64,000 nucleotides of DNA from Pseudomonadales bacterium (GTDB lineage Bacteria; Pseudomonadota; Gammaproteobacteria; Pseudomonadales; UBA7434), in the NCBI GenBank assembly GCA_965659815.1, contig CBFHXO010000004.1, positions 181-64,180 of the forward strand. Reading direction: 5' to 3'. Position numbers and translations under genes: made by a program. Every line of letters begins with the position of its first letter. Within the stretch, counting starts at the first letter, position 1. Under the pieces are notes generated by a model. That model saw only the letters and a program-made list of their open reading frames with translations, was not told the DNA's origin and made no database searches. Shown here piece by piece: positions 19,462 to 44,273 of the stretch.

Positions 19462-20148
19462 CTAGAGCTTAAATTCAATACTCGCAGAAATTTCTTTTAC
19501 CTCAATCTCGTCGCGATCAAATAATTCCATATATTCTGTATTGATATAAACTCGATCATTGATTTTAAAATTAATGCCAGCACCATAAGAAGCATTACGC
19601 AGTTTTGCACCGGCCGTACCGCCTGCCTCTGTTACATCAAAGTTACCGCGTGAATGACCCCAAATAACATACGGTGAGGCAAACCAGTTTTCAAAATCAC
19701 CACCTATACGAATATATCCGCCTATGTAGCTTTCCAAATTCAATTCGGCGTCTACCGGCGTGGTAAGAATTTCGAGTCGACGCACGCCCGCAATCTGGAC
19801 AAAATCGGTAACGATTTCTTCGCCGTAATCTTCTAGAGTAATAGTGCTAACACCATAACCACCGCGAACCTCAATGGCGAAATATCGATTCAGCTGGTAG
19901 CCAAATTTTACTTTCAAGCCTTCGAGATCATCATCGATATCGGAAAAACGCTCAGGACGCACACCACCATCGAGCTGCTCGATAATTACATTGGGGTCGG
20001 TAGAGTTCTCTTGCGTCGCACTCTCAACATTAGGTTGTTCATAGCCCATCGACATATAGCCTAAACCGATATACCCGCCAGCTGACGCAAACATCGATGC
20101 ACTACCTAGCACTATCGCGAGACCGGCTGCTTTCAACTTATTCATCAT
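19462..20148 (-). CDS. small outer-membrane beta-barrel (porin-family) protein
   Basis: 228 aa. Signal peptide ...ASMFASA, alternating aromatic/hydrophobic beta-strand pattern, and C-terminal ...SIEFKL. Confidence 0.65.
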   Translation of the reverse strand: MMNKLKAAGLAIVLGSASMFASAGGYIGLGYMSMGYEQPNVESATQENSTDPNVIIEQLDGGVRPERFSDIDDDLEGLKVKFGYQLNRYFAIEVRGGYGVSTITLEDYGEEIVTDFVQIAGVRRLEILTTPVDAELNLESYIGGYIRIGGDFENWFASPYVIWGHSRGNFDVTEAGGTAGAKLRNASYGAGINFKINDRVYINTEYMELFDRDEIEVKEISASIEFKL

Positions 20149-20260: not shown

Positions 20261-23110
20261 TTATTCCCACTCAAAAATAACATCGACACCAAAGGTTCGC
20301 GGCATACCGTATGCCGCAATATCGTAAACGGTGGCATTTAGCTCAAACCGCTGGGTCTGGTATTGGTTATCAAACAGGTTTTGCGACCACAGCGCCGTAC
20401 GCACCACACCGTAGTCCAGAACAAACTCGGCTTGCACACGCAGATCCCAAAGATGGCGCGCATCAACTTTTAAGGTGTCGTTAACAAAGAAGGGATCTTT
20501 GTAGTTATAGCCTAAGTGAAAAAACAGCTCACCAAAATCGGTAGGTAGTCGATAATCTAACGCTGTTGTCCATGAACTCTCTGGCGCACCAAAGTTACTC
20601 TTGCGCTCAGTACAACGACCGCGGTCAAGATCTAAACGTCGCAAACCACCGGTACAACGGCGGGTTAATTCACCCAACTGCACTTCCAGCACAGGATCAC
20701 CCAATGCCGTTGCCGGGTCAAAACCACGACCAAAGTCAGGCACAAACGGCGTGGTGTATTCATCGGAACCCGAGCGCAATAAAGCATAGTTTGCGGTTAG
20801 CGTTAACTCATCAGTCAGGTTCCAGCGAGTATCTAGCTCAAGCCCATACGCATAGCCATCGGCATTCACCACCGCACGCGAAATTGGCGAGGTAGGGAAA
20901 ACCACGGTTTCCTGCCCATCGTCAATATCGGAATAGTAAGACGCCAGTTCAAATTCAGCCAGGCCGTTCCATAATGCGCCCTTCATACCAAACTCATAGG
21001 CAATCTGCGACTCACCCTCAAACTTGAGATCACTGCCTGTTGAACCTTGCAAAGAGCCCTCAACCACCGGCAACTGTCTTGCCTCAACATTAAAGTTACC
21101 GGAGCGAAAGCCACTGGCCACACTAAAGTAGGCCGTAACCTCTTCCGATACATCGTAAGCCAACTTGATTTTAGGGTCGAACGACTCCCAAACATCGGAC
21201 TCTGTCTCAACATCTCCTCTTATATCGAGACTAAAAGCATACAACCCCTGGCGCTTAAGCTCTCTTTCGTCACGGGTATAACGGCCGGCAAGCGTAATCG
21301 TTAAGCGCTCATCCAGCCAGAGCGGCGTGTAATCAAATGATGAGTACAGACCAAGAACGTCACTATTTAGCCGGTTAAGGCTGACAAAACTAAAACCAAA
21401 CCCATCGGTTTCACCTCGCGACGGACGACCGAAATCGAGCAAGTCAATAACGTCGAGGTAAAGTTCGTTTTCTCCATCAAGCTGACGACCATTACCGGTT
21501 CGCTCATTGAAGTAATACACACCTGCTACATAGGACAGCCTGTCATCTAGGAAATAGCCACTTTGTTTCAGCTCAAGACTCCATTGCTTGTGATCGCGTA
21601 GCGAAGCAACACCCCCTGGTGGGCTGGAAAATACCGAAGTCAGCATATTCCTCAGCTGAAAGTTCGAAAATGTAGTGGATGATGCGATCTGATTGATTGG
21701 ATCAAAGCCTGGCGGAGCGGTTGGTGGTAATGACGTTGGTGTCAAACCACAGTTAATTGGCCCAGAGCCTGAATAGGGCTCACAACCCAGATAACCCAAT
21801 AACGTATTGCCCAATGCACTGCCTGAATTTGCGGCAATACCGAAGGGTGACAGGTTCTCAAACCCAGGTGCTGAATACTCATAAGGTATTTGCGTGTATT
21901 CTCGCCCTTCGATTATATCAAATATAAGGCTTCGGGGACTTTGTGCAATCGACTCTGACAGTAACGATTGGGAGGCGACATTCGGAAAAAAGTAAAAGGT
22001 ACCATTAACATCAGATGTACGATGCGTACCAACAAAACTCAACGTATGCGCCTCAGACCAGGCCCATTCAAAGTTCAAACCGTGGCCATCGGCTGCTGTT
22101 GTACTGTTTTCAATTTCCCGAATGGTTGCAGTGGTTTCGTCTAATCGACGGGATCCCAGTGGATCTAGAAAAATCTCCTGTGGGCCAAAATCATCCGAAA
22201 ATGCATCTTCCTGGAAAATAGCAATATTAGCTGGCGCATTGCCTCTGCGTCGGTAGTCGGCCCGGTTAAATTCCGTCTTGCCCTCTAACAGCAGTGGCTG
22301 GTAATAAATCGGCTGGGTAATAAAGTCAGAGTTGTCGTAGCTGTAGTCGAGCGTTATATTTTCTGAGGCATGCCAGCGAAAGGTAAAGCGATAACCTTCG
22401 CGATCGTAGCCATTAAAGTCGACACCCAAACCTTTATTCTCTACCCAGCCCTCTGCCGTATTCTTAAAACCGCCCATACGCACGGCCAAGTTATCGGTAA
22501 TGGGTAGGTTCAGGATACCCGTTACATTGCGTCGTTCGAAATTACCCACTTTGGTTTCAAGCCGACCATAAATGCCTTCGACATCGGCTTTGGCAGTAAT
22601 CAGGTTGATAGTGCCACCAATGGCATTACGGCCAAAGGTAAACCCCTGTGGACCTTTAAGCACTTCGACGCGCTCAAGGTCAATAATATCAAATACCAGG
22701 CCGCTGGCTCGGCCCAAAAATGCACCGTCGACGTAAAGACCTACTTTACTCTCAACACCTAACTGCGAATCACGTGCGCCGATACCACGCAGGGTAAAAC
22801 GCAAACCTTGTGCACCTGACGGCGATGACGTTAGACCGGGAACCGCGTTAGAAATATCAGCAAAACCTTTAATCTGCTGGGTTTCAAGATCCTCCAAATC
22901 AAATGCGTCAATCGATTCGGTTAAATCCAGCGTGTTATCATCTTGCCTTTCGGCTTCGATAATCACCTCTTCCATGGTTTGCGCATTGAGCCTTGCCGGC
23001 AATAACAACGCCACTGACATTAATATCAACAACATTAAAGCCAACGAAACATGGGAATAACGATCCGGCATTGAAAAGGAATTGATTTTTTGACTGATTA
23101 CAGCTCGCAT
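20261..23110 (-). CDS. TonB-dependent receptor
   Basis: 949 aa. Signal peptide; plug domain (LEVLKGPQGFTFGRNAIGGTINL); long barrel ending in a C-terminal aromatic residue (...VIFEWE). The real start may be the internal ATG at 23071. Confidence 0.9.
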   Translation of the reverse strand: MRAVISQKINSFSMPDRYSHVSLALMLLILMSVALLLPARLNAQTMEEVIIEAERQDDNTLDLTESIDAFDLEDLETQQIKGFADISNAVPGLTSSPSGAQGLRFTLRGIGARDSQLGVESKVGLYVDGAFLGRASGLVFDIIDLERVEVLKGPQGFTFGRNAIGGTINLITAKADVEGIYGRLETKVGNFERRNVTGILNLPITDNLAVRMGGFKNTAEGWVENKGLGVDFNGYDREGYRFTFRWHASENITLDYSYDNSDFITQPIYYQPLLLEGKTEFNRADYRRRGNAPANIAIFQEDAFSDDFGPQEIFLDPLGSRRLDETTATIREIENSTTAADGHGLNFEWAWSEAHTLSFVGTHRTSDVNGTFYFFPNVASQSLLSESIAQSPRSLIFDIIEGREYTQIPYEYSAPGFENLSPFGIAANSGSALGNTLLGYLGCEPYSGSGPINCGLTPTSLPPTAPPGFDPINQIASSTTFSNFQLRNMLTSVFSSPPGGVASLRDHKQWSLELKQSGYFLDDRLSYVAGVYYFNERTGNGRQLDGENELYLDVIDLLDFGRPSRGETDGFGFSFVSLNRLNSDVLGLYSSFDYTPLWLDERLTITLAGRYTRDERELKRQGLYAFSLDIRGDVETESDVWESFDPKIKLAYDVSEEVTAYFSVASGFRSGNFNVEARQLPVVEGSLQGSTGSDLKFEGESQIAYEFGMKGALWNGLAEFELASYYSDIDDGQETVVFPTSPISRAVVNADGYAYGLELDTRWNLTDELTLTANYALLRSGSDEYTTPFVPDFGRGFDPATALGDPVLEVQLGELTRRCTGGLRRLDLDRGRCTERKSNFGAPESSWTTALDYRLPTDFGELFFHLGYNYKDPFFVNDTLKVDARHLWDLRVQAEFVLDYGVVRTALWSQNLFDNQYQTQRFELNATVYDIAAYGMPRTFGVDVIFEWE

Positions 23111-23254
23111 CGATGCAAACCCTTATTGTTTAATTATGACTCGCCCAGTGGATTGGGGTAATGTATTATCTGATCCATAGCAACTTTGTAAGCGTAATTA
23201 GATATAACCAAGTTCCACTACGTGGTTCCAATTCGAATACAAAAATGGATGTTT

Positions 23255-23270
23255 GCAAAAACGTTTTTGC
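23255..23270. promoter_or_regulatory. perfect 16-bp palindrome GCAAAAACGTTTTTGC upstream of the TonB-dependent receptor (LacI-family-operator-like)
   Basis: The palindrome is read directly and lies about 150 bp upstream of the receptor start. The resemblance to TGCAAACGTTTGCA-type LacI operators is from recall. Confidence 0.35.
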
Positions 23271-24043
23271 GTACTTATTATCGTATTGATACTCGCATTT
23301 ACCTGTTCGACCTTATTGCTTAAATCAGTTGGCCAACTCAGTTGATGAGACCAGCTAATCGTTTCAGCGTTGATTTACTTAACGAAAACACGCTTGTCAC
23401 GCCAACCCTGACCAACATGCTCACTGCTTGCAGACTGACCTTACTGCAATAAGTGAAATCATCGAGCATCACATGCTGGGTTATAGAGCGGGAGACGCGC
23501 TTGATCTCCGTCGAAGCAACCTGCCATATGCATTAATCGAGTTCATTGATCGATTATCTCTTAACGCTATTACTAATTGGTTTGCAAAACTAAAAAAAAT
23601 TAAATGGCACTAGTTGATGGCAAAACAATTAAGCTAAAGCATTTATCGTTGGCTGTCGAACGCGAACAAATTCTACACCAACAACAAACACATGCAACCG
23701 TTATTTGGTGTCAGAAAAAGCCAAAGCCAATGCAATTAATATCATTAAAACGCATTTCAATGCGACGACGGCACAAACAAAACGAAGGGTTATTAAAACG
23801 GGTAGAATTTAAACGAATCGTTGCTATGAAGGCCATTTTGTTATCGCTATTACAGGCAGCAACCCCTCCGTAATTGTGAGTATTATAGAGTAACTTGGTT
23901 CATGTATCGGACCAATAAAAACCCGGCTTACGATAAAAAGCGCCCCAGTCTGGCACCTTTGATTGCCGCCTATGTTGGCAGCAAATAAATTTTAGTGCGC
24001 CAGCTTGCCTGACGCTACAACTAGCAAAGCAAAATCAACAGGC

Positions 24044-24077
24044 AAAAAAAACCCGCCAATGAAGGCGGGTTTTTTTA
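24044..24077. terminator. bidirectional Rho-independent terminator
   Basis: A-run, then ACCCGCC-aatgaa-GGCGGGT, then a T-run. It lies directly downstream of the minus-strand gene that ends at 24095. Confidence 0.8.
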
Positions 24078-24094
24078 CATCAACGAATTAGCAA

Positions 24095-25282
24095 TTAAGA
24101 AACTCGACGACGCAGACGGACAGCGACTGCAACCAAGCCACCGAACAGAGCGGCTAAGCCAAACGCGCCCATTGCTGGAACGTTTTTGCTGGTATTTTGC
24201 TCCAGTGAACGCTGCTTGCTTACGCGCGGGAAATCGAACGTAGTAAAAGACTGTGCCTTACCTACGTTAATTCCATCTAGAGTATCAAACGCGATGTCAG
24301 TAATGTGCTGATATCCACCGCCTGTTGCTACGAAGTCACCACCGTTAAGAGTACCAGTGTGAGTAATTTCGAAGTAACCGCCTGAGCGTCGGCCTTGGAA
24401 GTCATGCAGAACTTCACCGTTTGCATTTTGCGTAGCATCACCAGAAACAAACACTACTGGGTTCGCACCTTGAAGATTGTATGGAGTACCGGGTGCTGTG
24501 AAAGTCCAGATATTGCCATCGCCTTCACAGGTTGCCTGATCAGGAGTACCGTTTGGAGCAAAGGTAGTGCCATCTATGCAGAACTCAACTTTGCCTGCAT
24601 CACCTTCTTGCCATGCCAAAGTTGGGAAGCTATTCAGGCCACCCCAGTTAGCAGTGTAACGTGCGTTTTGAGGGATAGTAGGAATTGGCGCACCAACTAC
24701 CGCTACCTGACTGCCTGCACCCCAACCACGTGAACAACCATTTGTGGTGCTGGCAGTGGGATCAAAGGTACCACAAAGGTATCCTGCATCTCTCAAATCA
24801 GCCCATTCTACGCCAATCGCAGTCGTGGGAGCTGGAAGGTTCTCGCAGCGGAAAATACCGTCACCATCATTAGCGTCGTTAGTAACTGTACATCCAAAAT
24901 CTTTACCTGGGGTGTAAGTACGCCCAGAAGGACGGATGTCATGCTGGAGACCATTCGCGCTGAAATATGCAGATTGAGTGCTAGTTAAGGTGTAATCAAG
25001 TACGTCACCGGTTAACTCATCAATGACTACACGAATAGTTGAAGCCCAGCCGTCACCGTCGCCTGCACCTGCGTTAGCCGCAATACGTGGCATTTGATAT
25101 ACAGCAGGAACGTTAGAGATTGAAGGTGGATTTGGAGCTGGTAAGTTTTGAATATTGGTTAACTGAGCTACTGCGCGGCCTTGCATGTTGATCTCGATGG
25201 TACCTGCGTTCACGACAGAGCTTCCGCCCGCAAGTACGATCGCAGCCATCAGCGGCGATACAGCGTGGTTTAATTTTTTCAT
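24095..25282 (-). CDS. secreted protein with a C-terminal PEP-CTERM-like / IPTLxxWG-like sorting signal (putative exosortase substrate)
   Basis: 395 aa. Signal peptide ...SSVVNA; three spaced Cys pairs; G/T/N-rich. The C-terminus is NVPAMGAFG-LAALFGGLVAVAV-RLRRRVS (motif, TM helix, Arg cluster). Confidence 0.75.
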   Translation of the reverse strand: MKKLNHAVSPLMAAIVLAGGSSVVNAGTIEINMQGRAVAQLTNIQNLPAPNPPSISNVPAVYQMPRIAANAGAGDGDGWASTIRVVIDELTGDVLDYTLTSTQSAYFSANGLQHDIRPSGRTYTPGKDFGCTVTNDANDGDGIFRCENLPAPTTAIGVEWADLRDAGYLCGTFDPTASTTNGCSRGWGAGSQVAVVGAPIPTIPQNARYTANWGGLNSFPTLAWQEGDAGKVEFCIDGTTFAPNGTPDQATCEGDGNIWTFTAPGTPYNLQGANPVVFVSGDATQNANGEVLHDFQGRRSGGYFEITHTGTLNGGDFVATGGGYQHITDIAFDTLDGINVGKAQSFTTFDFPRVSKQRSLEQNTSKNVPAMGAFGLAALFGGLVAVAVRLRRRVS

Positions 25283-25756
25283 TCTAATTCTCCGAAATAC
25301 AAATTATATGAGTTATTTTGAGTATCAAACGAACATTAATTGTCGTTGATAAGCCATCGTTATTATCTTGGGCTCTCGCCCTGGGCAGTTGTCCCTAACA
25401 ATTATCCTTAGCTAATCTCATGACACGCAAAAGCCTTGCCTGAAATAGAACAAAAACCACGCTAAGCGTGTTTTTGAGGATTCCAATTTTATCAGCGTAG
25501 ACCCTTATTCAATGGCTATCAAATCGTTAATGTCCGTCGGGCTAAGATATAACCATACTATTGCTCATTATTTATTAACACAAAAGTGCATCGTAAGGGC
25601 ATCTGATATCCCCTAAAACACAGATTTCAGCCTTTATATTTTTTTTGTTATATTAATCAAGGTCTTAGCTATGCAGGTAGATTCAGCTCAAGTTTCAGTG
25701 CATTGACATAAATCGGTCAAATATTGATTCGCACAGTCAAATGTTTCTTTTTCCGT

Positions 25757-26494
25757 TTATTTGCCAGCCGTCTTAGCTAAGCCGCTGGGAGATGTAATCT
25801 CAGAAAAATTCATAACTTTAAAAATTTCATCAGGCTTGCAATCAGGTGAGCACACGTATCCAAAAGCCCTATATGCGCGGTGATCAAGCCCTATAGCTGG
25901 CTCGCCAAGGCTAGCAATAATCATTTTTTGCTCGATCTCGTCTTGATTAACGCTCACCAGCTCAAGGACTCTCTCCACGGGTAGCTCGTCGGGATTTGGA
26001 AGCCCAACAGATCGCGGCACGTCGGCAAGAGCATCAACTATTGCCTGCTCGTTAAGCCACTTATAGCTAACCGAAGTAAAGTGTACAGCGTGCCCAACTG
26101 TATTATCCCGGTCTGCCAAATTATCAATAACTTGCGCGTTCAGAGCTTGGAAAACAGGTACAACAGCAAACCCATAGGCATCAAATCTAGTCACCCAGGC
26201 CTCGCCCTCTAAGCTTTGTAATCGGTGACCATGGTCATAACACGCAATAGACAATATTGTTTTTAATTCAGCAGACAAGTCCTCCGCTTTGATCGCCCGC
26301 TCGGGTGCGCCCGCACAATCCATGACCTCACTGCGCTTATTGATGATTTTCTGCTTAGCCTTCAATTGCTCGACATATTGCTCCGCGGCGCTTAACGGCA
26401 TCGGCTCGACAGTTTCTTCTTGTCGATAACTTGACCGCTCCCAAATGAAACCGATAATGATTACTGGAATTAATATAAGAATTATTTTTTTCAT
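25757..26494 (-). CDS. hypothetical membrane-anchored protein
   Basis: 245 aa. N-terminal TM MKKIILILIPVIIIGFIW followed by an acidic soluble domain. I recognise no family. Confidence 0.6.
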   Translation of the reverse strand: MKKIILILIPVIIIGFIWERSSYRQEETVEPMPLSAAEQYVEQLKAKQKIINKRSEVMDCAGAPERAIKAEDLSAELKTILSIACYDHGHRLQSLEGEAWVTRFDAYGFAVVPVFQALNAQVIDNLADRDNTVGHAVHFTSVSYKWLNEQAIVDALADVPRSVGLPNPDELPVERVLELVSVNQDEIEQKMIIASLGEPAIGLDHRAYRAFGYVCSPDCKPDEIFKVMNFSEITSPSGLAKTAGK

Positions 26495-26882
26495 GATTAC
26501 ACCTCAAACGCTGCCATTCTGCCGAGTGCTACTCACTCAGATCAAATAAATCGTGAAATGATTTTCCTAAAGCTCTGCAACAAAGCATAATGTGGAATTC
26601 ATCTTCGCAAGATTTAAGTATAATTCTAGATAGATACTTAATTCAAAATCTTTACAAAAACACATAATTCCCATACTCGCCAGCACAGCACACGCAGCCT
26701 TTCAAAGAGTATATCTTCGATTGCAATGCCTCATTCTAAAGTGTAGCTGTGCACACGAAATAATCGAACTGTTATAACAGTATTGCTAAGCGGCTATGCG
26801 ATAAATATAATACTCAAGACCCCATCCTCCGGTTACAGCGTTTCAATCGGAGCAAAAAAATCAAGCTGCTAAAGGGCGCACC

Positions 26883-27434
26883 ATGCGACTCAGCGACAAT
26901 CAATACGCGAAGAAGTTTGTAGACAAGTATCCGATCATTACCGTCCGAATACCCGGTTGGGAAAGCTTAAATCCACTATTAGAGCAAGGTATAAGAGCTT
27001 CTGGCGACAAACAAAGCCACACCACAAACGTCAAAGCCGATATGACCGACTTCCAAATGTGGGAGCAGGACAAACCTGCCTACCAGCAGTTCCAAGTTAT
27101 CTGCAAACATGCGGTTCAGCTAGCATTTGACAATGCTCCTGCGCAAAGTAAACCACACTTCAACCCGGTCATTACCGAGATATGGGGGGCGATTTATCGA
27201 AAAAGTGAACACACCATATTACATGATCACTGGCCGTCGACGTGGAGTTTTACCTATTATGTAAATGTATCGGATGACTGCTCTCCAATTGTTTTTCCAG
27301 ATGCAAACATCTCACTGAAACCAAAAAATGGAATGATGTGTATGTTTCCAGGGTGGGTAGCCCACAAAGTACCCAAACAAAAAACAAATTATGAACGCGT
27401 GATGGTAGCTGGTAACATTAGCGACAAACCATAA
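26883..27434 (+). CDS. putative 2OG-Fe(II) oxygenase (small ~200-aa family)
   Basis: 183 aa with the pattern H-D-H...YYVN...P..G....FPGWVAH.V......ERV..AGN. This is typical of the small putative 2OG-Fe(II) oxygenase family, assigned from recall. Confidence 0.55.
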   Translation: MRLSDNQYAKKFVDKYPIITVRIPGWESLNPLLEQGIRASGDKQSHTTNVKADMTDFQMWEQDKPAYQQFQVICKHAVQLAFDNAPAQSKPHFNPVITEIWGAIYRKSEHTILHDHWPSTWSFTYYVNVSDDCSPIVFPDANISLKPKNGMMCMFPGWVAHKVPKQKTNYERVMVAGNISDKP

Positions 27435-27502
27435 GACACACCATAAGACAAAGCATGAAATGATGCATGGAATTTAACAGTATATGTATGCGCTAGCGGC
27501 AG

Positions 27503-28066
27503 CTAACTATGCTGTCGCTGATGCCGCTCAATCTTACTTCCCCAATAATAAAAATAAACCACTGCGATAATCCACAAACCCGCTGGTAAGATAGTGTGGT
27601 GAAAAATATCAAACACGTCGGTATGGTGAACATCAACCCAGAGTAACATGCTGATGCGAACCACATTAAACAAAAACATCAACCCAATACCAAAGAGTAT
27701 GCCAAGGACTTTTTGCCTAATACTACCCTCGTAGGCAATAATCGCCGCTGCCAACACACTGTAAATCCTTAATGCATCACAGCCCTCAACCACGGTTACC
27801 GAAGGGCCAGCGGCACTGGTAATGGTGCGGGCTAACAAGGTCACCTCCTCGCCAATCAGATTTAATAAGCCCGCCGATAACTCGGCGCAAAAACCCAGGT
27901 AGGCAAGAAACGGTAACGAGTCGATAAATAGCTGAAAATAAATAATTTGGAAAATTGCAAACACCATGGCGGCAACCGCAATAAAGTGAATGGCTTCGCC
28001 GTATTCTTCAATAAGAGCATCCAGTGACGAACGCTGATCCGGTGTATCTTCATTTTCATTAGTCAA
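27503..28066 (-). CDS. exosortase/archaeosortase-family protein (small, XrtH-like)
   Basis: 187 aa with about 5 TM segments. The Cys-Arg-His signature is in the expected order and context: VTVVEGCDALRIY, FNVVRISMLLW, DIFHHTILP. Confidence 0.65.
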   Translation of the reverse strand: MTNENEDTPDQRSSLDALIEEYGEAIHFIAVAAMVFAIFQIIYFQLFIDSLPFLAYLGFCAELSAGLLNLIGEEVTLLARTITSAAGPSVTVVEGCDALRIYSVLAAAIIAYEGSIRQKVLGILFGIGLMFLFNVVRISMLLWVDVHHTDVFDIFHHTILPAGLWIIAVVYFYYWGSKIERHQRQHS

Positions 28067-29375: not shown

Positions 29376-31028
29376 ATGTCAGCCGTTAAACGAAACGACC
29401 CCTGCCCTTGCGGCAGTGGCAAAAAATATAAAAAATGCTGCCTGCTTAACGAGGGCCAGCCAAGCGCCAATGGTTCAAAATCAAACCTGGGGCAATCCAC
29501 TGTCGATATTCGCCAACTGCGCAACACAGCCATTGGCTTTCACCGCCAGGGCAACTTCGCTTCTGCAGTCGCCTTGTATCGCCAGGTTATTGAACACAAC
29601 AATGACGATGTCGACGTTCTGTTTGAACTAGGTCGCCTGCAAGGCATGCTAAACGAGGTCAACTCACAAGGGCTGCAAGAAGGCATTGACTGCCTGACAA
29701 CATCCGTGCGGCTAAGACCTCAAGACCTTGAATCGCATATTGAGCTGGCCAAAGTCTTAAATAAAAACTTTTCTGCGCAGGCCGTGCTTGAGCACACCGA
29801 CGTCGCACTAAAACGCTTTCCGGATAATCTAGCGCTTATCTCCCAGCGCGCCACGGCGCTCATTCAACTGAACCATCTTGAGGCGGCTAAAACACTGCTT
29901 GAGCATGCCCAGCAACTCAGCCCAAACAGGGCCGATATTGTGCTATCGCTGGCAAAAACCTTAACGGGCCTTAAATTGTTTGATGCCGCGTATGAAAAAT
30001 TACAGGCGCTACTCGAACACGATAAAACAACAGCGGCAGATAAAATATTTATTTACTATGCGCTTGGCGCCGTTGAAGATAAACGCAAAAACTACCCACA
30101 GGCCTTTGATAATTTTAGCCGAGCAGGACAATACCAGCTAGCGTCACCGGAGTGCCAACATTGGTCGGCCGCGTCTGACATTAAGACCATTGAGCAGTTT
30201 AGTGACACGTTTGCGGCCACGAAACCGGCCACAGCAAGCACTGAAAACCCCAACAGCTGCGCATTGGTTTTTTTAATTGGCTTTCCGCGTTCAGGTACAA
30301 CGCTAACCGAGCAGGCGCTGGCCGCGCACAGTAAAATCAACACCTCAGAAGAACGCCCTATTCTTGGCAATGCGATTGGCAGCGTATTTGCGCGCCATAA
30401 TGCCAGCTACGAAAACAATGCGCTGGGTATATTTAATCGATTAACCCAAAACGATATTGCCTTGGTGAGAGAAAATTATTGGCAGCAGGTCGATAGCAAT
30501 CACCGCGGCGAAGGCTCGGTTTATATTGATAAGCTGCCGCTTAATATTAATCATATTGCCTGGATACAGGCAGTTTTTCCCGAGGCGCGTATTATTCTCG
30601 CGCTACGCGACCCAAGAGATGCCTGCCTCAGCTGCTTTTTTCAGCACTTTGCCCCCAACACTGCCATGAACCATTTTCTTAGCTGGCCCGGCACGACAGG
30701 CTATTACGCCAAAGTGATGTCACAATGGCTAGTAGCAAAACCGGTGCTGACAAATCAATGGATAGAAACGCGCTATGAAGACACGGTAGAAGACGCAACC
30801 GCGCAATTGAAAAAACTGATCGAATTTATGTCGCTGGAATGGGAACCCGACATGATGAATTACCGCGACCAATTGGCTGACCGGTCGATTCCCACACCCA
30901 GTAATGCCGCTATCCGCCAACCCATTAATCGCCAAGCCCTGGCACGCTGGAAAAATTACCCCGAAGCCACCACTGCGGCGCGGCAAGATCTTGAACCGCT
31001 GGTCACCGCCTTTGGTTACCAGTGGTAA
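29376..31028 (+). CDS. SEC-C motif / TPR-repeat / sulfotransferase fusion protein
   Basis: 550 aa. N-terminal DPCPCGSGKKYKKCC (SEC-C zinc motif), central TPR-like repeats, and C-terminal sulfotransferase motifs GFPRSGTTL (5'-PSB) and LRDPRDACLSCF (3'-PB-like). Confidence 0.8.
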   Translation: MSAVKRNDPCPCGSGKKYKKCCLLNEGQPSANGSKSNLGQSTVDIRQLRNTAIGFHRQGNFASAVALYRQVIEHNNDDVDVLFELGRLQGMLNEVNSQGLQEGIDCLTTSVRLRPQDLESHIELAKVLNKNFSAQAVLEHTDVALKRFPDNLALISQRATALIQLNHLEAAKTLLEHAQQLSPNRADIVLSLAKTLTGLKLFDAAYEKLQALLEHDKTTAADKIFIYYALGAVEDKRKNYPQAFDNFSRAGQYQLASPECQHWSAASDIKTIEQFSDTFAATKPATASTENPNSCALVFLIGFPRSGTTLTEQALAAHSKINTSEERPILGNAIGSVFARHNASYENNALGIFNRLTQNDIALVRENYWQQVDSNHRGEGSVYIDKLPLNINHIAWIQAVFPEARIILALRDPRDACLSCFFQHFAPNTAMNHFLSWPGTTGYYAKVMSQWLVAKPVLTNQWIETRYEDTVEDATAQLKKLIEFMSLEWEPDMMNYRDQLADRSIPTPSNAAIRQPINRQALARWKNYPEATTAARQDLEPLVTAFGYQW

Positions 31029-42523: not shown

Positions 42524-42600
42524 TGGTCGGGACGGCAGGATTTGAACCTGCGACCACCACACCCCCAGTGTGGTGCGCTACCAGACTGCGCTACGCCCCG
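42524..42600 (-). tRNA. tRNA-Pro (anticodon GGG)
   Basis: The reverse complement folds as a cloverleaf: CGGGGCG TA GCGC AGTCTGGTA GCGC A CCACA CTGGGGG TGTGG TGGTC GCAGG TTCAAAT CCTGC CGTCCCG A CCA. Confidence 0.95.
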
Positions 42601-42728: not shown

Positions 42729-44273
42729 TTAATCCAATAATAATCCCGCATCTTGCAACTTTCGTATCGCCGGCATCAATAACTTACGATACGGCTTCCA
42801 ACGCTTAACCGACGAACCGTAAACCGGCTGCCGAATCTGCAACCGACTTACCGTATTCACCGCCTTTTCACTGCGGTAAAAATCCAACATGCCCGAATCC
42901 CAGGGCAATTCACAAAACACACAAAGCCGCTTTAACTCCACTTCAGGCTCAGCAACCAGTTGCTCGTATTGCATAGTAATAAACCCACTACCAAACTGCT
43001 CACCCCAGTGCGCAATTAAGCGACGATAAGCAATGTAATAATCTGCTAATGCCTCAAGATCACTGGTATAAGCCAGGTCATTAAAGGAGTTTTGATAACA
43101 ACTTAATATCGTATCCAGCGGGTTCCGCTCCAAGACGACAACCTTGGCATTGGCAAATAACGATAAAATTAAACCGATAATACGATAGTTGTCTAACGAC
43201 TTGTCTACATAGACCGGTGTCGATACCATACCGCCAATATAATCCTGATAGGCACGCATAAACTGCACTACCGACGCATTATTCAGCTCTGGCAACAGCG
43301 CAGGTCGTATTGGCCCATAACCCATGCGCGAATCAGTCACCGATAAACAGCGCTCCAATAAACAACTCTCGCCGGTCGCAGTAACCTCAGCATGCTGCGC
43401 TAACATTTGCTCTAGCATCGTTGAACCACTGCGCGGCATACCAACAATAAATATCGGCATTGGCGAATCAACAGCACAATACTCAGCATAGCGATTTAAA
43501 TAACCTTCAAAATACCCAGCATCAAATTGCTGTATCGTTTGAGCAATAACACGTTGGTTATGCAGCGTATCAAAAGGTTTAACCCTTTGTTGCTGATCAT
43601 TGGCACGCTTTAAACTTTGCATTTCGCGCGGCAGCTCTCCTAACTGACGCCAATAAGCCGCAATGGCAAAACCCAACTGCGCCGCATCAGTGGCAGATGT
43701 GCTTTTTTTCTTAAGCAATAACTGCATTTTATCAAGGTCTTTACGACTAAACTGCGTAATACCAATGAGCTGAAACCAGGCCGCAGCACACTGCTTGTTT
43801 TTCTTTATTACCTCTCTAAAAGCAAGCGCTGCTCGCTCTGTATCGCCACTTTCAACCAAACTTAAACCCAGCGAGAAATGCAATTCCCAGCTGTTGGGGT
43901 GTAACGCAATACCCCCATCAAGATGATTAATCGCTTGATCATGCCGCTCTAGCTTGCGCAGCAAATCACCTTTCATTAATAAAAAATTCTGATGCTGCGA
44001 ATCCAGCGCCAGCGCTGAATCGCAAAGCTGTAACCTCACATTTAAATCAACGCCTTGTAAATCGAGAATATAGGCTTTCATCCATAACAGCGGTAAGTAC
44101 TGCGGCTGCTGGTCTAATAGCTGGTCGGTAATCGTTAAAGCCTGCGGCAATTGACCCGCGCTAATAAGATCAGCAATGGTTTGGTAAGCCTGGGCTAAAG
44201 ATAAGCTGCTGGGGGAAGTGAAGGCCGTTGCCCGAAAGGTCACTACGGTAGCATTCGGATCGATAGTATTCAT
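42729..44273 (-). CDS. TPR-repeat sulfotransferase family protein
   Basis: 514 aa. N-terminal TPR-like repeats. Sulfotransferase motifs GMPRSGSTML and LERNPLDTILSCY. It is a paralogue of the 29376-31028 protein but lacks the SEC-C motif. Confidence 0.8.
   Translation of the reverse strand: MNTIDPNATVVTFRATAFTSPSSLSLAQAYQTIADLISAGQLPQALTITDQLLDQQPQYLPLLWMKAYILDLQGVDLNVRLQLCDSALALDSQHQNFLLMKGDLLRKLERHDQAINHLDGGIALHPNSWELHFSLGLSLVESGDTERAALAFREVIKKNKQCAAAWFQLIGITQFSRKDLDKMQLLLKKKSTSATDAAQLGFAIAAYWRQLGELPREMQSLKRANDQQQRVKPFDTLHNQRVIAQTIQQFDAGYFEGYLNRYAEYCAVDSPMPIFIVGMPRSGSTMLEQMLAQHAEVTATGESCLLERCLSVTDSRMGYGPIRPALLPELNNASVVQFMRAYQDYIGGMVSTPVYVDKSLDNYRIIGLILSLFANAKVVVLERNPLDTILSCYQNSFNDLAYTSDLEALADYYIAYRRLIAHWGEQFGSGFITMQYEQLVAEPEVELKRLCVFCELPWDSGMLDFYRSEKAVNTVSRLQIRQPVYGSSVKRWKPYRKLLMPAIRKLQDAGLLLD

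Follow-up and report, generated by a model that had tools for sequence, protein, structure and literature searches.

Layout of the locus

We describe a gene cassette in a 64-kb stretch of DNA from a Pseudomonadales bacterium; by the window we mean this whole 64-kb stretch. The cassette combines a 187-amino-acid (aa) protein of the exosortase/archaeosortase family, a secreted 395-aa protein that looks like its substrate, and a TonB-dependent receptor (TBDR). A first-pass annotation had proposed a module of four genes here, and the four open reading frames (ORFs) do lie at the coordinates and on the strands at which it had placed them, with the Cys, Arg and His motifs of the enzyme in the order it had given. 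Although those four genes are real, the annotation stopped at position 24095 and missed the TBDR and the small outer-membrane protein downstream, the unit that is the strongest clue to function. Loci fetched from relatives carry the labels L001-L059. The features of the cassette are:

27503-28066, minus strand: mini-exosortase, 187 aa, TTG start, TIGR04178 match
26883-27434, plus strand: PF13759 2-oxoglutarate (2OG)-Fe(II)-oxygenase-like protein, cytoplasmic, 183 aa; gene convergent with the enzyme gene
25757-26494, minus strand: envelope protein outside known families, 245 aa, with an N-terminal signal anchor
24095-25282, minus strand: substrate, 395 aa, with a Sec signal peptide (about residues 1-26), a beta-rich passenger and a C-terminal tail
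about 24098-24187, minus strand: tail of the 395-aa protein (residues 366-395)
24034-24060, minus strand: intrinsic terminator just past the stop codon of the 395-aa gene (10-pair stem, then a T-run)
20261-23110, minus strand: TBDR, 949 aa, downstream of the substrate gene
19462-20148, minus strand: small outer-membrane beta-barrel protein (OMP), 228 aa, the last gene of the cassette

The enzyme and substrate genes are 2.2 kb apart, and the 395-aa protein is the sole ORF in the window that ends in a hydrophobic helix followed by a basic cluster. Genes for exopolysaccharide (EPS) biosynthesis, whose absence had been remarked on before, were indeed not found among those window ORFs that were scanned.

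A minimal exosortase outside the curated subtypes

The 187-aa protein scores 52.9 bits (E 3.3e-14) against the TIGR04178 exosortase/archaeosortase signature model, whose cutoff is 23, and thus its motifs are not a chance match and its proposed family membership holds. These motifs run in the order VVEGCDALR (Cys96), NVVRISML (Arg137) and FHHTILP (His156/157). The Cys/Arg/His triad of exosortases has been defined previously (10.1101/2023.06.07.544157). Cys96 (in EGCDALR), Arg137 (in N..RIS) and His156 (in FHH) are invariant in 27 of 27 aligned homologues and form a putative catalytic triad.

None of the named exosortase subtype models is passed by the protein, which reaches 64.3 bits for XrtX (cutoff 170), 64.6 for XrtM (125), 59 for XrtH (86), 43.2 for XrtF (90) and less for the others. 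The XrtA and XrtB models give no match at E<=1, nor does PF09721 in a Pfam hmmscan of the window enzyme itself; a precomputed PF09721 match accompanies 23 of its 33 homologues. These homologues, counted at the level of 90% clusters, are 177-223 aa long and 48-68% identical to the window enzyme, and NCBI labels its relatives 'archaeosortase/exosortase family protein', nothing narrower. Public data also hold an identical 187-aa product (P0001). When 185,579 species genomes were scanned, 10 proved to encode the enzyme, all of them uncultured marine Cellvibrionales/Pseudomonadales.

The hydrophobic stretches of the protein mark it as polytopic and deeply membrane-embedded, and its AlphaFold2 (AF2) model (pLDDT 91.3, pTM 0.81) has five long helices. 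In the model a short beta-sheet (residues 75-91) leads into Cys96 at the start of helix 3, Arg137 lies in helix 4 and His156 is close to the start of helix 5. Neither a sequence profile compared with PDB chains nor the fold of the model retrieved a solved structure resembling the enzyme. Classical exosortases have eight or more transmembrane helices, reside in EPS loci and serve many Ser/Thr-rich floc or biofilm clients (10.1101/2023.06.07.544157). With 187 aa and five helices, against eight or more in classical XrtA, the window enzyme is as unusually small as first described, and thus only the conserved core is present. Judged from its sequence, the protein is a true exosortase-family member, reduced to that core and outside every curated subtype.

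A near-invariant C-terminal tail

The 395-aa protein carries an N-terminal hydrophobic Sec-type signal at residues 7-27 and ends in NVPAMGAFGLAALFGGLVAVAVRLRRRVS. Its tail consists of the motif KNVPAMGAFG, the helix LAALFGGLVAVAV and then RLRRRVS and the stop codon, with zero spacer between motif and helix. A motif abutting a helix, followed by a basic cluster, is the architecture of exosortase, archaeosortase and rhombosortase clients (10.1101/2023.06.07.544157). Both the tripartite signal and the N-terminal signal peptide are kept in 30 of 30 substrate family members. The early description of this protein as a secreted, cognate-looking substrate is upheld, as is its linkage to the enzyme in other genomes, and every orthologue carries the tail with hardly a change.

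The tail fails every curated CTERM model. Profile models recognise the enzyme at the level of the family signature, while the hope of placing enzyme or tail with the named subtype and CTERM models came to nothing. IPTL-CTERM (TIGR04174) aligns over positions 1-26 of 27 and scores 12.6 bits, below its cutoff of 20.5, and the 'midcut-by-XrtH' model also matches weakly. As for PEP-CTERM, the tail contains no PEP, and neither the full protein (E<=1) nor the tail (E<=10) has a Pfam or NCBIfam match of that kind. A positive control, VPLPA-CTERM, passes on a protein from another locus (L051:310-1065; 26.4 bits against a cutoff of 25.35), and thus the CTERM library is able to detect such short domains. 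The string VPAMG is absent from the searchable literature.

About 50 proteins carry this tail, and an exhaustive HMMER scan of 1.84 billion representative proteins found it in only 29; this census figure is that of the exhaustive scan, a word-indexed search with the tail profile having given only four short fragments. In the 30-member alignment of the substrate family, mean pairwise identity is 92.8% for the tail (residues 366-395) and 91.3% for the helix core alone, as against 38.6% for the mature domain and 40.9% for the signal peptide; the comparable figure for the enzyme family is 57.2%. Between orthologues at eight loci, synonymous differences affect 13-20 of the 30 tail codons and non-synonymous ones 0-2. 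Synonymous sites in the tail are thus saturated while few non-synonymous changes have accumulated, which argues that its identity is upheld by selection on the peptide. The same 13-20 synonymous differences rule out a recently copied DNA cassette, or gene conversion, as the cause.

The passenger upstream of the tail has four conserved cysteines (C131/C148/C170/C183). The AF2 model of the 395-aa protein (pTM 0.68) found no match in the PDB (best E 0.035, template-modelling score 0.2 or less).

The tail on four passenger families, each beside a receptor gene

Four passenger families bear the tail: A (about 395 aa, the window type), B (about 358 aa), C (about 262 aa) and D (about 340-400 aa). When profiles were compared with the tails trimmed, A, B and D emerged as remote homologues (hhalign probability 97-99%), and C as unrelated to them. 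No enzyme gene was seen within the 8-10 kb flanks of the fetched type B, C and D loci.

What these genes share is their neighbour. Downstream sequence is long enough to be informative for 25 of the 32 distinct canonical-tail genes. In 23 of these 25, a same-strand TBDR gene follows within 2.5 kb; the remaining two are the first members of a tandem array at L055 that is itself followed by a TBDR. The link is present in all four types, usually with a gene for a small outer-membrane barrel nearby. Cassette A runs substrate, TBDR, OMP barrel; cassette B runs substrate, TBDR (after an 11-bp gap in L018), Porin_7; cassette C consists of a GDSL lipase gene, substrate and TBDR; and cassette D of a divergent OMP-like gene, substrate and TBDR. 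The TBDRs of types A, B and D share 37-41% identity, and the type-C TBDR has only the plug region in common with them. The window TBDR itself matches receptor models weakly and below threshold (best TIGR01783, 146.5 bits, cutoff 223.5); its orthologues carry Plug and TonB_dep_Rec_b-barrel Pfam matches. Such orthologues, at 50-74% identity, follow the substrate gene in L001, L002, L013, L014/L023, L021, L055, L056 and L057, and orthologues of the 228-aa OMP with PF13505 (OMP_b-brl) follow the TBDR in L001, L002, L013, L014, L055, L056 and L057.

A non-coding gap of about 1 kb (23111-24094) separates the substrate and TBDR genes in the window. The gap is of similar length in L001, where the same hairpin and T-run follow the substrate gene. 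A search for riboswitches or leaders found no Rfam element in the gap, only sub-threshold, terminator-driven matches, and promoter-like sites are no more frequent than in shuffled sequence (17 found, 16.2 expected). A few short blocks in the gap are conserved and unexplained.

In type C, the gene for a GDSL lipase/esterase always lies directly upstream of the 262-aa tail gene (L016:7947-8942, L029-L045), a possible sign that the type-C transporter takes up an ester or a lipid.

A second form of the tail, KNVPAMG[GS]IGLLALGLSMLGLGAVRMRRK, is internally conserved and occurs in another marine organism (L046-L054). Its carriers are large adhesin-like proteins with TSP3, RCC1 or pentapeptide repeats, several per contig (for example L051:1776-3080, L051:5624-7177 and L050:312-2570). 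These tails score 10.7-14 bits against IPTL-CTERM, and the organism also encodes VPLPA-CTERM proteins. No cognate enzyme for the second form was seen in the fetched L046-L054 loci. As it sits on adhesin-like proteins, the KNVPAMG class is wider than its use for TBDR partners in the clade of the window.

Enzyme and substrate are linked, but the enzyme also stands alone

Enzyme and substrate genes are adjacent in at least nine loci, at distances of 0.6-6.2 kb (window, L001, L002-4, L012/L055, L013, L014/L023, L026, L056 and L057), and enzyme and tail share one narrow range, uncultured marine Cellvibrionales/Pseudomonadales. Of the four-gene linkage first proposed, the part that stands is enzyme, ~250-aa protein and substrate, which occur together in at least seven distinct lineages; the oxygenase falls away, being absent from L056, L057 and L026. 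Gene order varies. The window type reads enzyme, oxygenase (opposite strand), 245-aa protein, substrate; L056 reads enzyme, substrate and a 231-aa homologue of the 245-aa protein; and L057 reads enzyme, a 265-aa homologue, substrate. At L055 (132-11812, in the 3.4 Mb metagenome-assembled genome (MAG) OZ244196) the substrate gene is present as four tandem paralogues and YebC is missing from the flank; the linkage at L012/L055 is kept despite this different housekeeping flank.

At three further loci the enzyme gene stands alone between YebC and GDPD-GCV_T-Sdh5 (L015:10001-12882, L058:10001-12771, L059:10001-12841). This is the same site that the cassette (unknown, substrate, TBDR, OMP, with or without ADH) occupies in the window, L055 and L057. 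A check of flank orthology covered L015, and L058 and L059 have the same gene families on either side of the enzyme. The cassette was either lost at these loci or inserted elsewhere, and the enzyme was kept. Since its catalytic residues are intact in all three, the enzyme appears to be maintained for substrates encoded elsewhere. The tail also occurs on four families at loci whose fetched flanks hold no enzyme gene. From this and from the retention of the enzyme without an adjacent cassette, we conclude that the enzyme acts in trans, sorting a small set of TBDR partner proteins, and that the module is not limited to a single substrate.

Accessory and neighbouring genes

The two genes between enzyme and substrate are, as first described, a membrane-anchored 245-aa protein and an oxygenase. 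The 245-aa protein belongs to no Pfam or NCBIfam family. It has orthologues in L001, L002, L005, L012/L055, L013, L014, L021, L056 and L057, and a homologue accompanies every enzyme-substrate lineage save L026, a short contig, where none lies between enzyme and substrate. Invariant in the family are Cys60, Cys85, Cys215 and Cys219 together with His90, His135 and His138. The window protein has one N-terminal hydrophobic anchor. In the window and L001 this anchor looks uncleaved and lacks Cys, while a lipobox (LIAC|S, LSAC|S) is found in L056:12475-13170, L057:8597-9394 and L021:887-1582; envelope tethering thus varies by lineage between a lipoprotein signal and a signal anchor. Homologues were not found at type-D cassettes, where proteins of ~255 aa that we considered as candidates have no BLAST or HMM relation to the family and resemble outer-membrane barrels.

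The 183-aa oxygenase scores 46.9 bits against PF13759 (2OG-FeII_Oxy_5; cutoff 27) and 44.3 bits, below the 62.5 cutoff, against TIGR02466. H114, H116 and H161 are invariant at a mean column identity of 69%, and the protein has no hydrophobic signal or signal peptide. Its gene adjoins that of the enzyme in the window, L001, L002, L005 and L012 and lies nearby in L013/L014; given its patchy occurrence, the oxygenase is an optional, lineage-specific accessory. Profiles of the 245-aa protein and the oxygenase compared with PDB chains were uninformative.

Three further features lie outside the cassette:

29376-31028, plus strand: TPR-sulfotransferase gene, first copy
42729-44273, minus strand: TPR-sulfotransferase gene, second copy
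42527-42600, minus strand: single tRNA gene, the sole window Rfam match above gathering score

The first TPR-sulfotransferase has an N-terminal SecA-type SEC-C motif (residues 4-22), TPR repeats and a NoeE-like sulfotransferase domain. Homologues lie between or beside enzyme and oxygenase in L013, L014, L023, L055 and L057. The link is unproven, because the second window copy is 14 kb away and L001 and L002 are without one; as the family is multi-copy, its linkage may be incidental. At L055, the four substrate paralogues are surrounded, between enzyme and TBDR, by genes for candidate modifiers: a sulfotransferase, a TPR-GT41 glycosyltransferase, a TauD dioxygenase and a P4H-like 2OG-FeII_Oxy_3 protein. 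The scanned window ORFs around the locus are otherwise housekeeping genes (YebC, G6PD, ADH, GDPD, GCV_T, LepA, tRNA synthetases and ribonucleotide reductase).

A proposed pathway and its rivals

We consider it probable that this is a minimal, hitherto unclassified exosortase system of uncultured marine Cellvibrionales/Pseudomonadales, the clients of which are TBDR partner proteins. Its enzyme family, the conservation of the catalytic residues, purifying selection on the tail, the enzyme-substrate linkage and the tail-TBDR linkage are all firmly supported. In such a system Sec would export the 395-aa protein and the C-terminal helix would tether it in the inner membrane, and, judging by the architecture of the sequence, RLRRR would be cytoplasmic and KNVPAMGAFG would lie at the periplasmic face. 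The five-helix enzyme may dock the tail helix through a sequence-specific interface of small Gly/Ala residues, as the near-invariance of the helix suggests. Cys96, aided by Arg137 and His156, would then cleave in or next to KNVPAMG on the periplasmic face and release the helix, and the new C-terminus would probably pass to an acceptor, for instance a lipid head group; ArtA/PGF-CTERM and rhombosortase/GlyGly-CTERM are the models for this step. The strict gene linkage suggests that the matured protein would reach the outer membrane and work with the neighbouring TBDR and small barrel, most plausibly as a ligand-capture or accessory subunit. One enzyme would serve every tail-bearing protein in the genome, and the Cys/His-rich 245-aa envelope protein would be an accessory of the enzyme-adjacent cassette. 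More speculatively, the cytoplasmic 2OG oxygenases linked to the enzyme might act before export and hydroxylate the invariant Lys-Asn-Val-Pro residues of the motif.

Several points weigh against this proposal. Cleavage, the attached moiety and surface location are inferred, and we know of no solved exosortase structure. The ligand-binding role is a guess, because the passenger fold matched nothing. As the passengers and TBDRs of A, B and D are related, the TBDR linkage may represent perhaps only two independent associations, one of the A/B/D superfamily and one of type C, though each is kept through deep divergence. The terminator of the substrate gene and the gap of about 1 kb mean that substrate and TBDR are not obligatorily co-transcribed, and the second-form KNVPAMG genes do not adjoin TBDR genes. 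Finally, co-occurrence of tail and enzyme was judged from the fetched loci and the taxonomic range, and another sorting enzyme may also be present in these genomes.

The first-pass annotation had seen a dedicated single-substrate sorting-and-modification module, in which the oxygenase and the 245-aa protein modify the adjacent 395-aa protein. The window, with exactly one tail-bearing ORF close to the enzyme, fits this, as do the tight linkage of oxygenase and enzyme in several lineages, the candidate modifiers added at L055 (TauD, GT41, P4H-like oxygenase and sulfotransferases), and one complete MAG in which the recovered tail proteins are four tandem paralogues beside the enzyme. We nevertheless regard it as unlikely, and the claim of a single substrate fails: the identical tail occurs on four families of unrelated or remotely related passengers with no enzyme in the fetched flanks, and three lineages without the cassette keep an enzyme with intact catalytic residues. 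Moreover, L056, L057 and L026 are without the oxygenase and yet their tail motif is unchanged, and the oxygenase, which lacks a signal peptide, could act only before export. Equally improbable to us is that the tail is a permanent, uncleaved inner-membrane anchor of a tethered periplasmic component of TonB-dependent uptake, the enzyme having another role or substrate. A functional transmembrane interaction domain would be expected to be conserved along its whole helix, as this tail is; cleavage is so far only inferred, and the curated CTERM models all reject the tail. However, a spacer-free motif, helix and Arg cluster at the C-terminus defines exosortase/archaeosortase substrates, and the alignment of the tail to IPTL-CTERM runs from end to end, albeit at a sub-threshold score. 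Enzyme and tail are also repeatedly adjacent and share the same narrow taxonomic range, and the invariant triad of the enzyme implies catalysis.

Very remote is the chance that adjacency is mere inherited synteny of close relatives and that tail similarity reflects recent gene conversion between paralogues. Most loci share YebC, G6PD, ADH and GDPD flanks and therefore belong to one clade, and the sources are without exception MAGs or metagenomes from a single order. Against this, the linkage outlasts rearrangement (YebC does not flank L012/L055, and L056, L057 and the window each have a gene order of their own), and tail identity is still >90% where enzyme identity is down to 46-52% and that of the passenger to ~30%. 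The synonymous differences in 13-20 of 30 tail codons exclude recent conversion at the DNA level, and unrelated type C passengers bear the same tail; by these two observations the explanation is already largely refuted.

Comparison with known systems

Among named subtypes, the enzyme appears nearest to XrtH, XrtM and XrtX on sequence grounds. The XrtH (TIGR04177)/IPTL-CTERM system likewise has a core-only enzyme (~160-190 aa) and no EPS locus, and its tail is built in matching register ([IV]-P-x-[LM]-x-x-[WF]-G, helix, Arg cluster). However, neither cutoff is reached (59 of 86 bits for the enzyme, 12.6 of 20.5 bits for the tail), the motif here is KNVPAMGAFG and not IPTLxxWG, the whole helix is invariant here, and the clients here are few and TBDR-linked. 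IPTL-CTERM proteins are numerous per genome and occur chiefly in Betaproteobacteria; we found almost no literature on XrtH or IPTL-CTERM. XrtM (TIGR04300) and XrtX (NF046081) give the best subtype scores, align over nearly their full length and are of similar size, but the window enzyme is far under their cutoffs (125 and 170, respectively). The partner of XrtM is one large MSEP-CTERM protein. With XrtA/XrtB and PEP-CTERM the system shares the enzyme superfamily, the Cys/Arg/His triad, the logic of a tripartite signal and a diderm host; it differs in its five helices, the absence of EPS genes among those seen, its handful of clients and its motif.

A functional parallel is ZepA of Anabaena, a PEP-CTERM zinc-scavenging exoprotein which has been proposed to pass zinc on to a receptor in the outer membrane and whose gene has TonB-dependent transporter (TBDT) genes nearby (PMC10957091). 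In line with what is proposed for the 395-aa protein, ZepA is an exosortase-type client with a Sec signal and a C-terminal tail that is cleaved, and is proposed to supply a nutrient to an outer-membrane receptor. Unlike it, ZepA has a standard VPEP motif, presumably a classical cyanobacterial exosortase, release to the medium and a TBDT linkage that is occasional, not strict; no sequence relationship to the proteins described here was seen. Because of the proposed zinc transfer, ZepA is a precedent for exosortase clients in nutrient uptake.

The ArtA/PGF-CTERM system of Haloferax and the rhombosortase/GlyGly-CTERM system of Vibrio, in which helix removal is coupled to lipid attachment, offer a mechanistic analogy only; they are experimentally supported models of that chemistry (10.1101/2023.06.07.544157). 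ArtA is archaeal, rhombosortase is an unrelated rhomboid-family enzyme, and their motifs differ from KNVPAMG. SusC/SusD and TbpA/TbpB resemble the cassette in gene organisation only, with a TonB-dependent transporter gene beside the gene of a surface accessory; their partners are lipidated at the N-terminus and no C-terminal sorting enzyme is involved. The 395-aa protein shows no SusD- or TbpB-type similarity by sequence (Pfam) or fold (PDB). What distinguishes the present system is the set of a minimal enzyme, a tail more conserved than the enzyme, few clients and strict pairing with TBDRs rather than EPS.

Implications

Exosortases are widespread, but to our knowledge almost nothing has been established on their roles beyond EPS and floc formation, or on the partner to which clients are attached. 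An enzyme of 187 aa with apparently one to few clients per genome makes for simpler genetics and biochemistry, and the near-invariant 30-residue tail allows a direct test of helix-level specificity in an intramembrane cysteine protease/transpeptidase. Additionally, the pairing with TBDRs gives each client a concrete physiological read-out.

TonB-dependent transporters are the chief high-affinity uptake route of marine heterotrophs, and their accessory surface proteins are well understood in Bacteroidota and hardly at all in Gammaproteobacteria. Our data point to an undescribed route for equipping TonB-dependent importers with partner proteins, and partners marked by this tail could be sought as a class in metagenomes and metaproteomes. 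A bolder and rather doubtful possibility is that of a distinct exosortase class with the whole 30-residue tail, helix included, as a lock-and-key recognition element. With it, oligotrophic marine Gammaproteobacteria would fix ligand-capture proteins, processed at the C-terminus and perhaps anchored by a lipid, to particular TonB-dependent transporters. If true, this would be a proteobacterial functional counterpart of the SusC/SusD systems of Bacteroidota, with a different anchoring chemistry.

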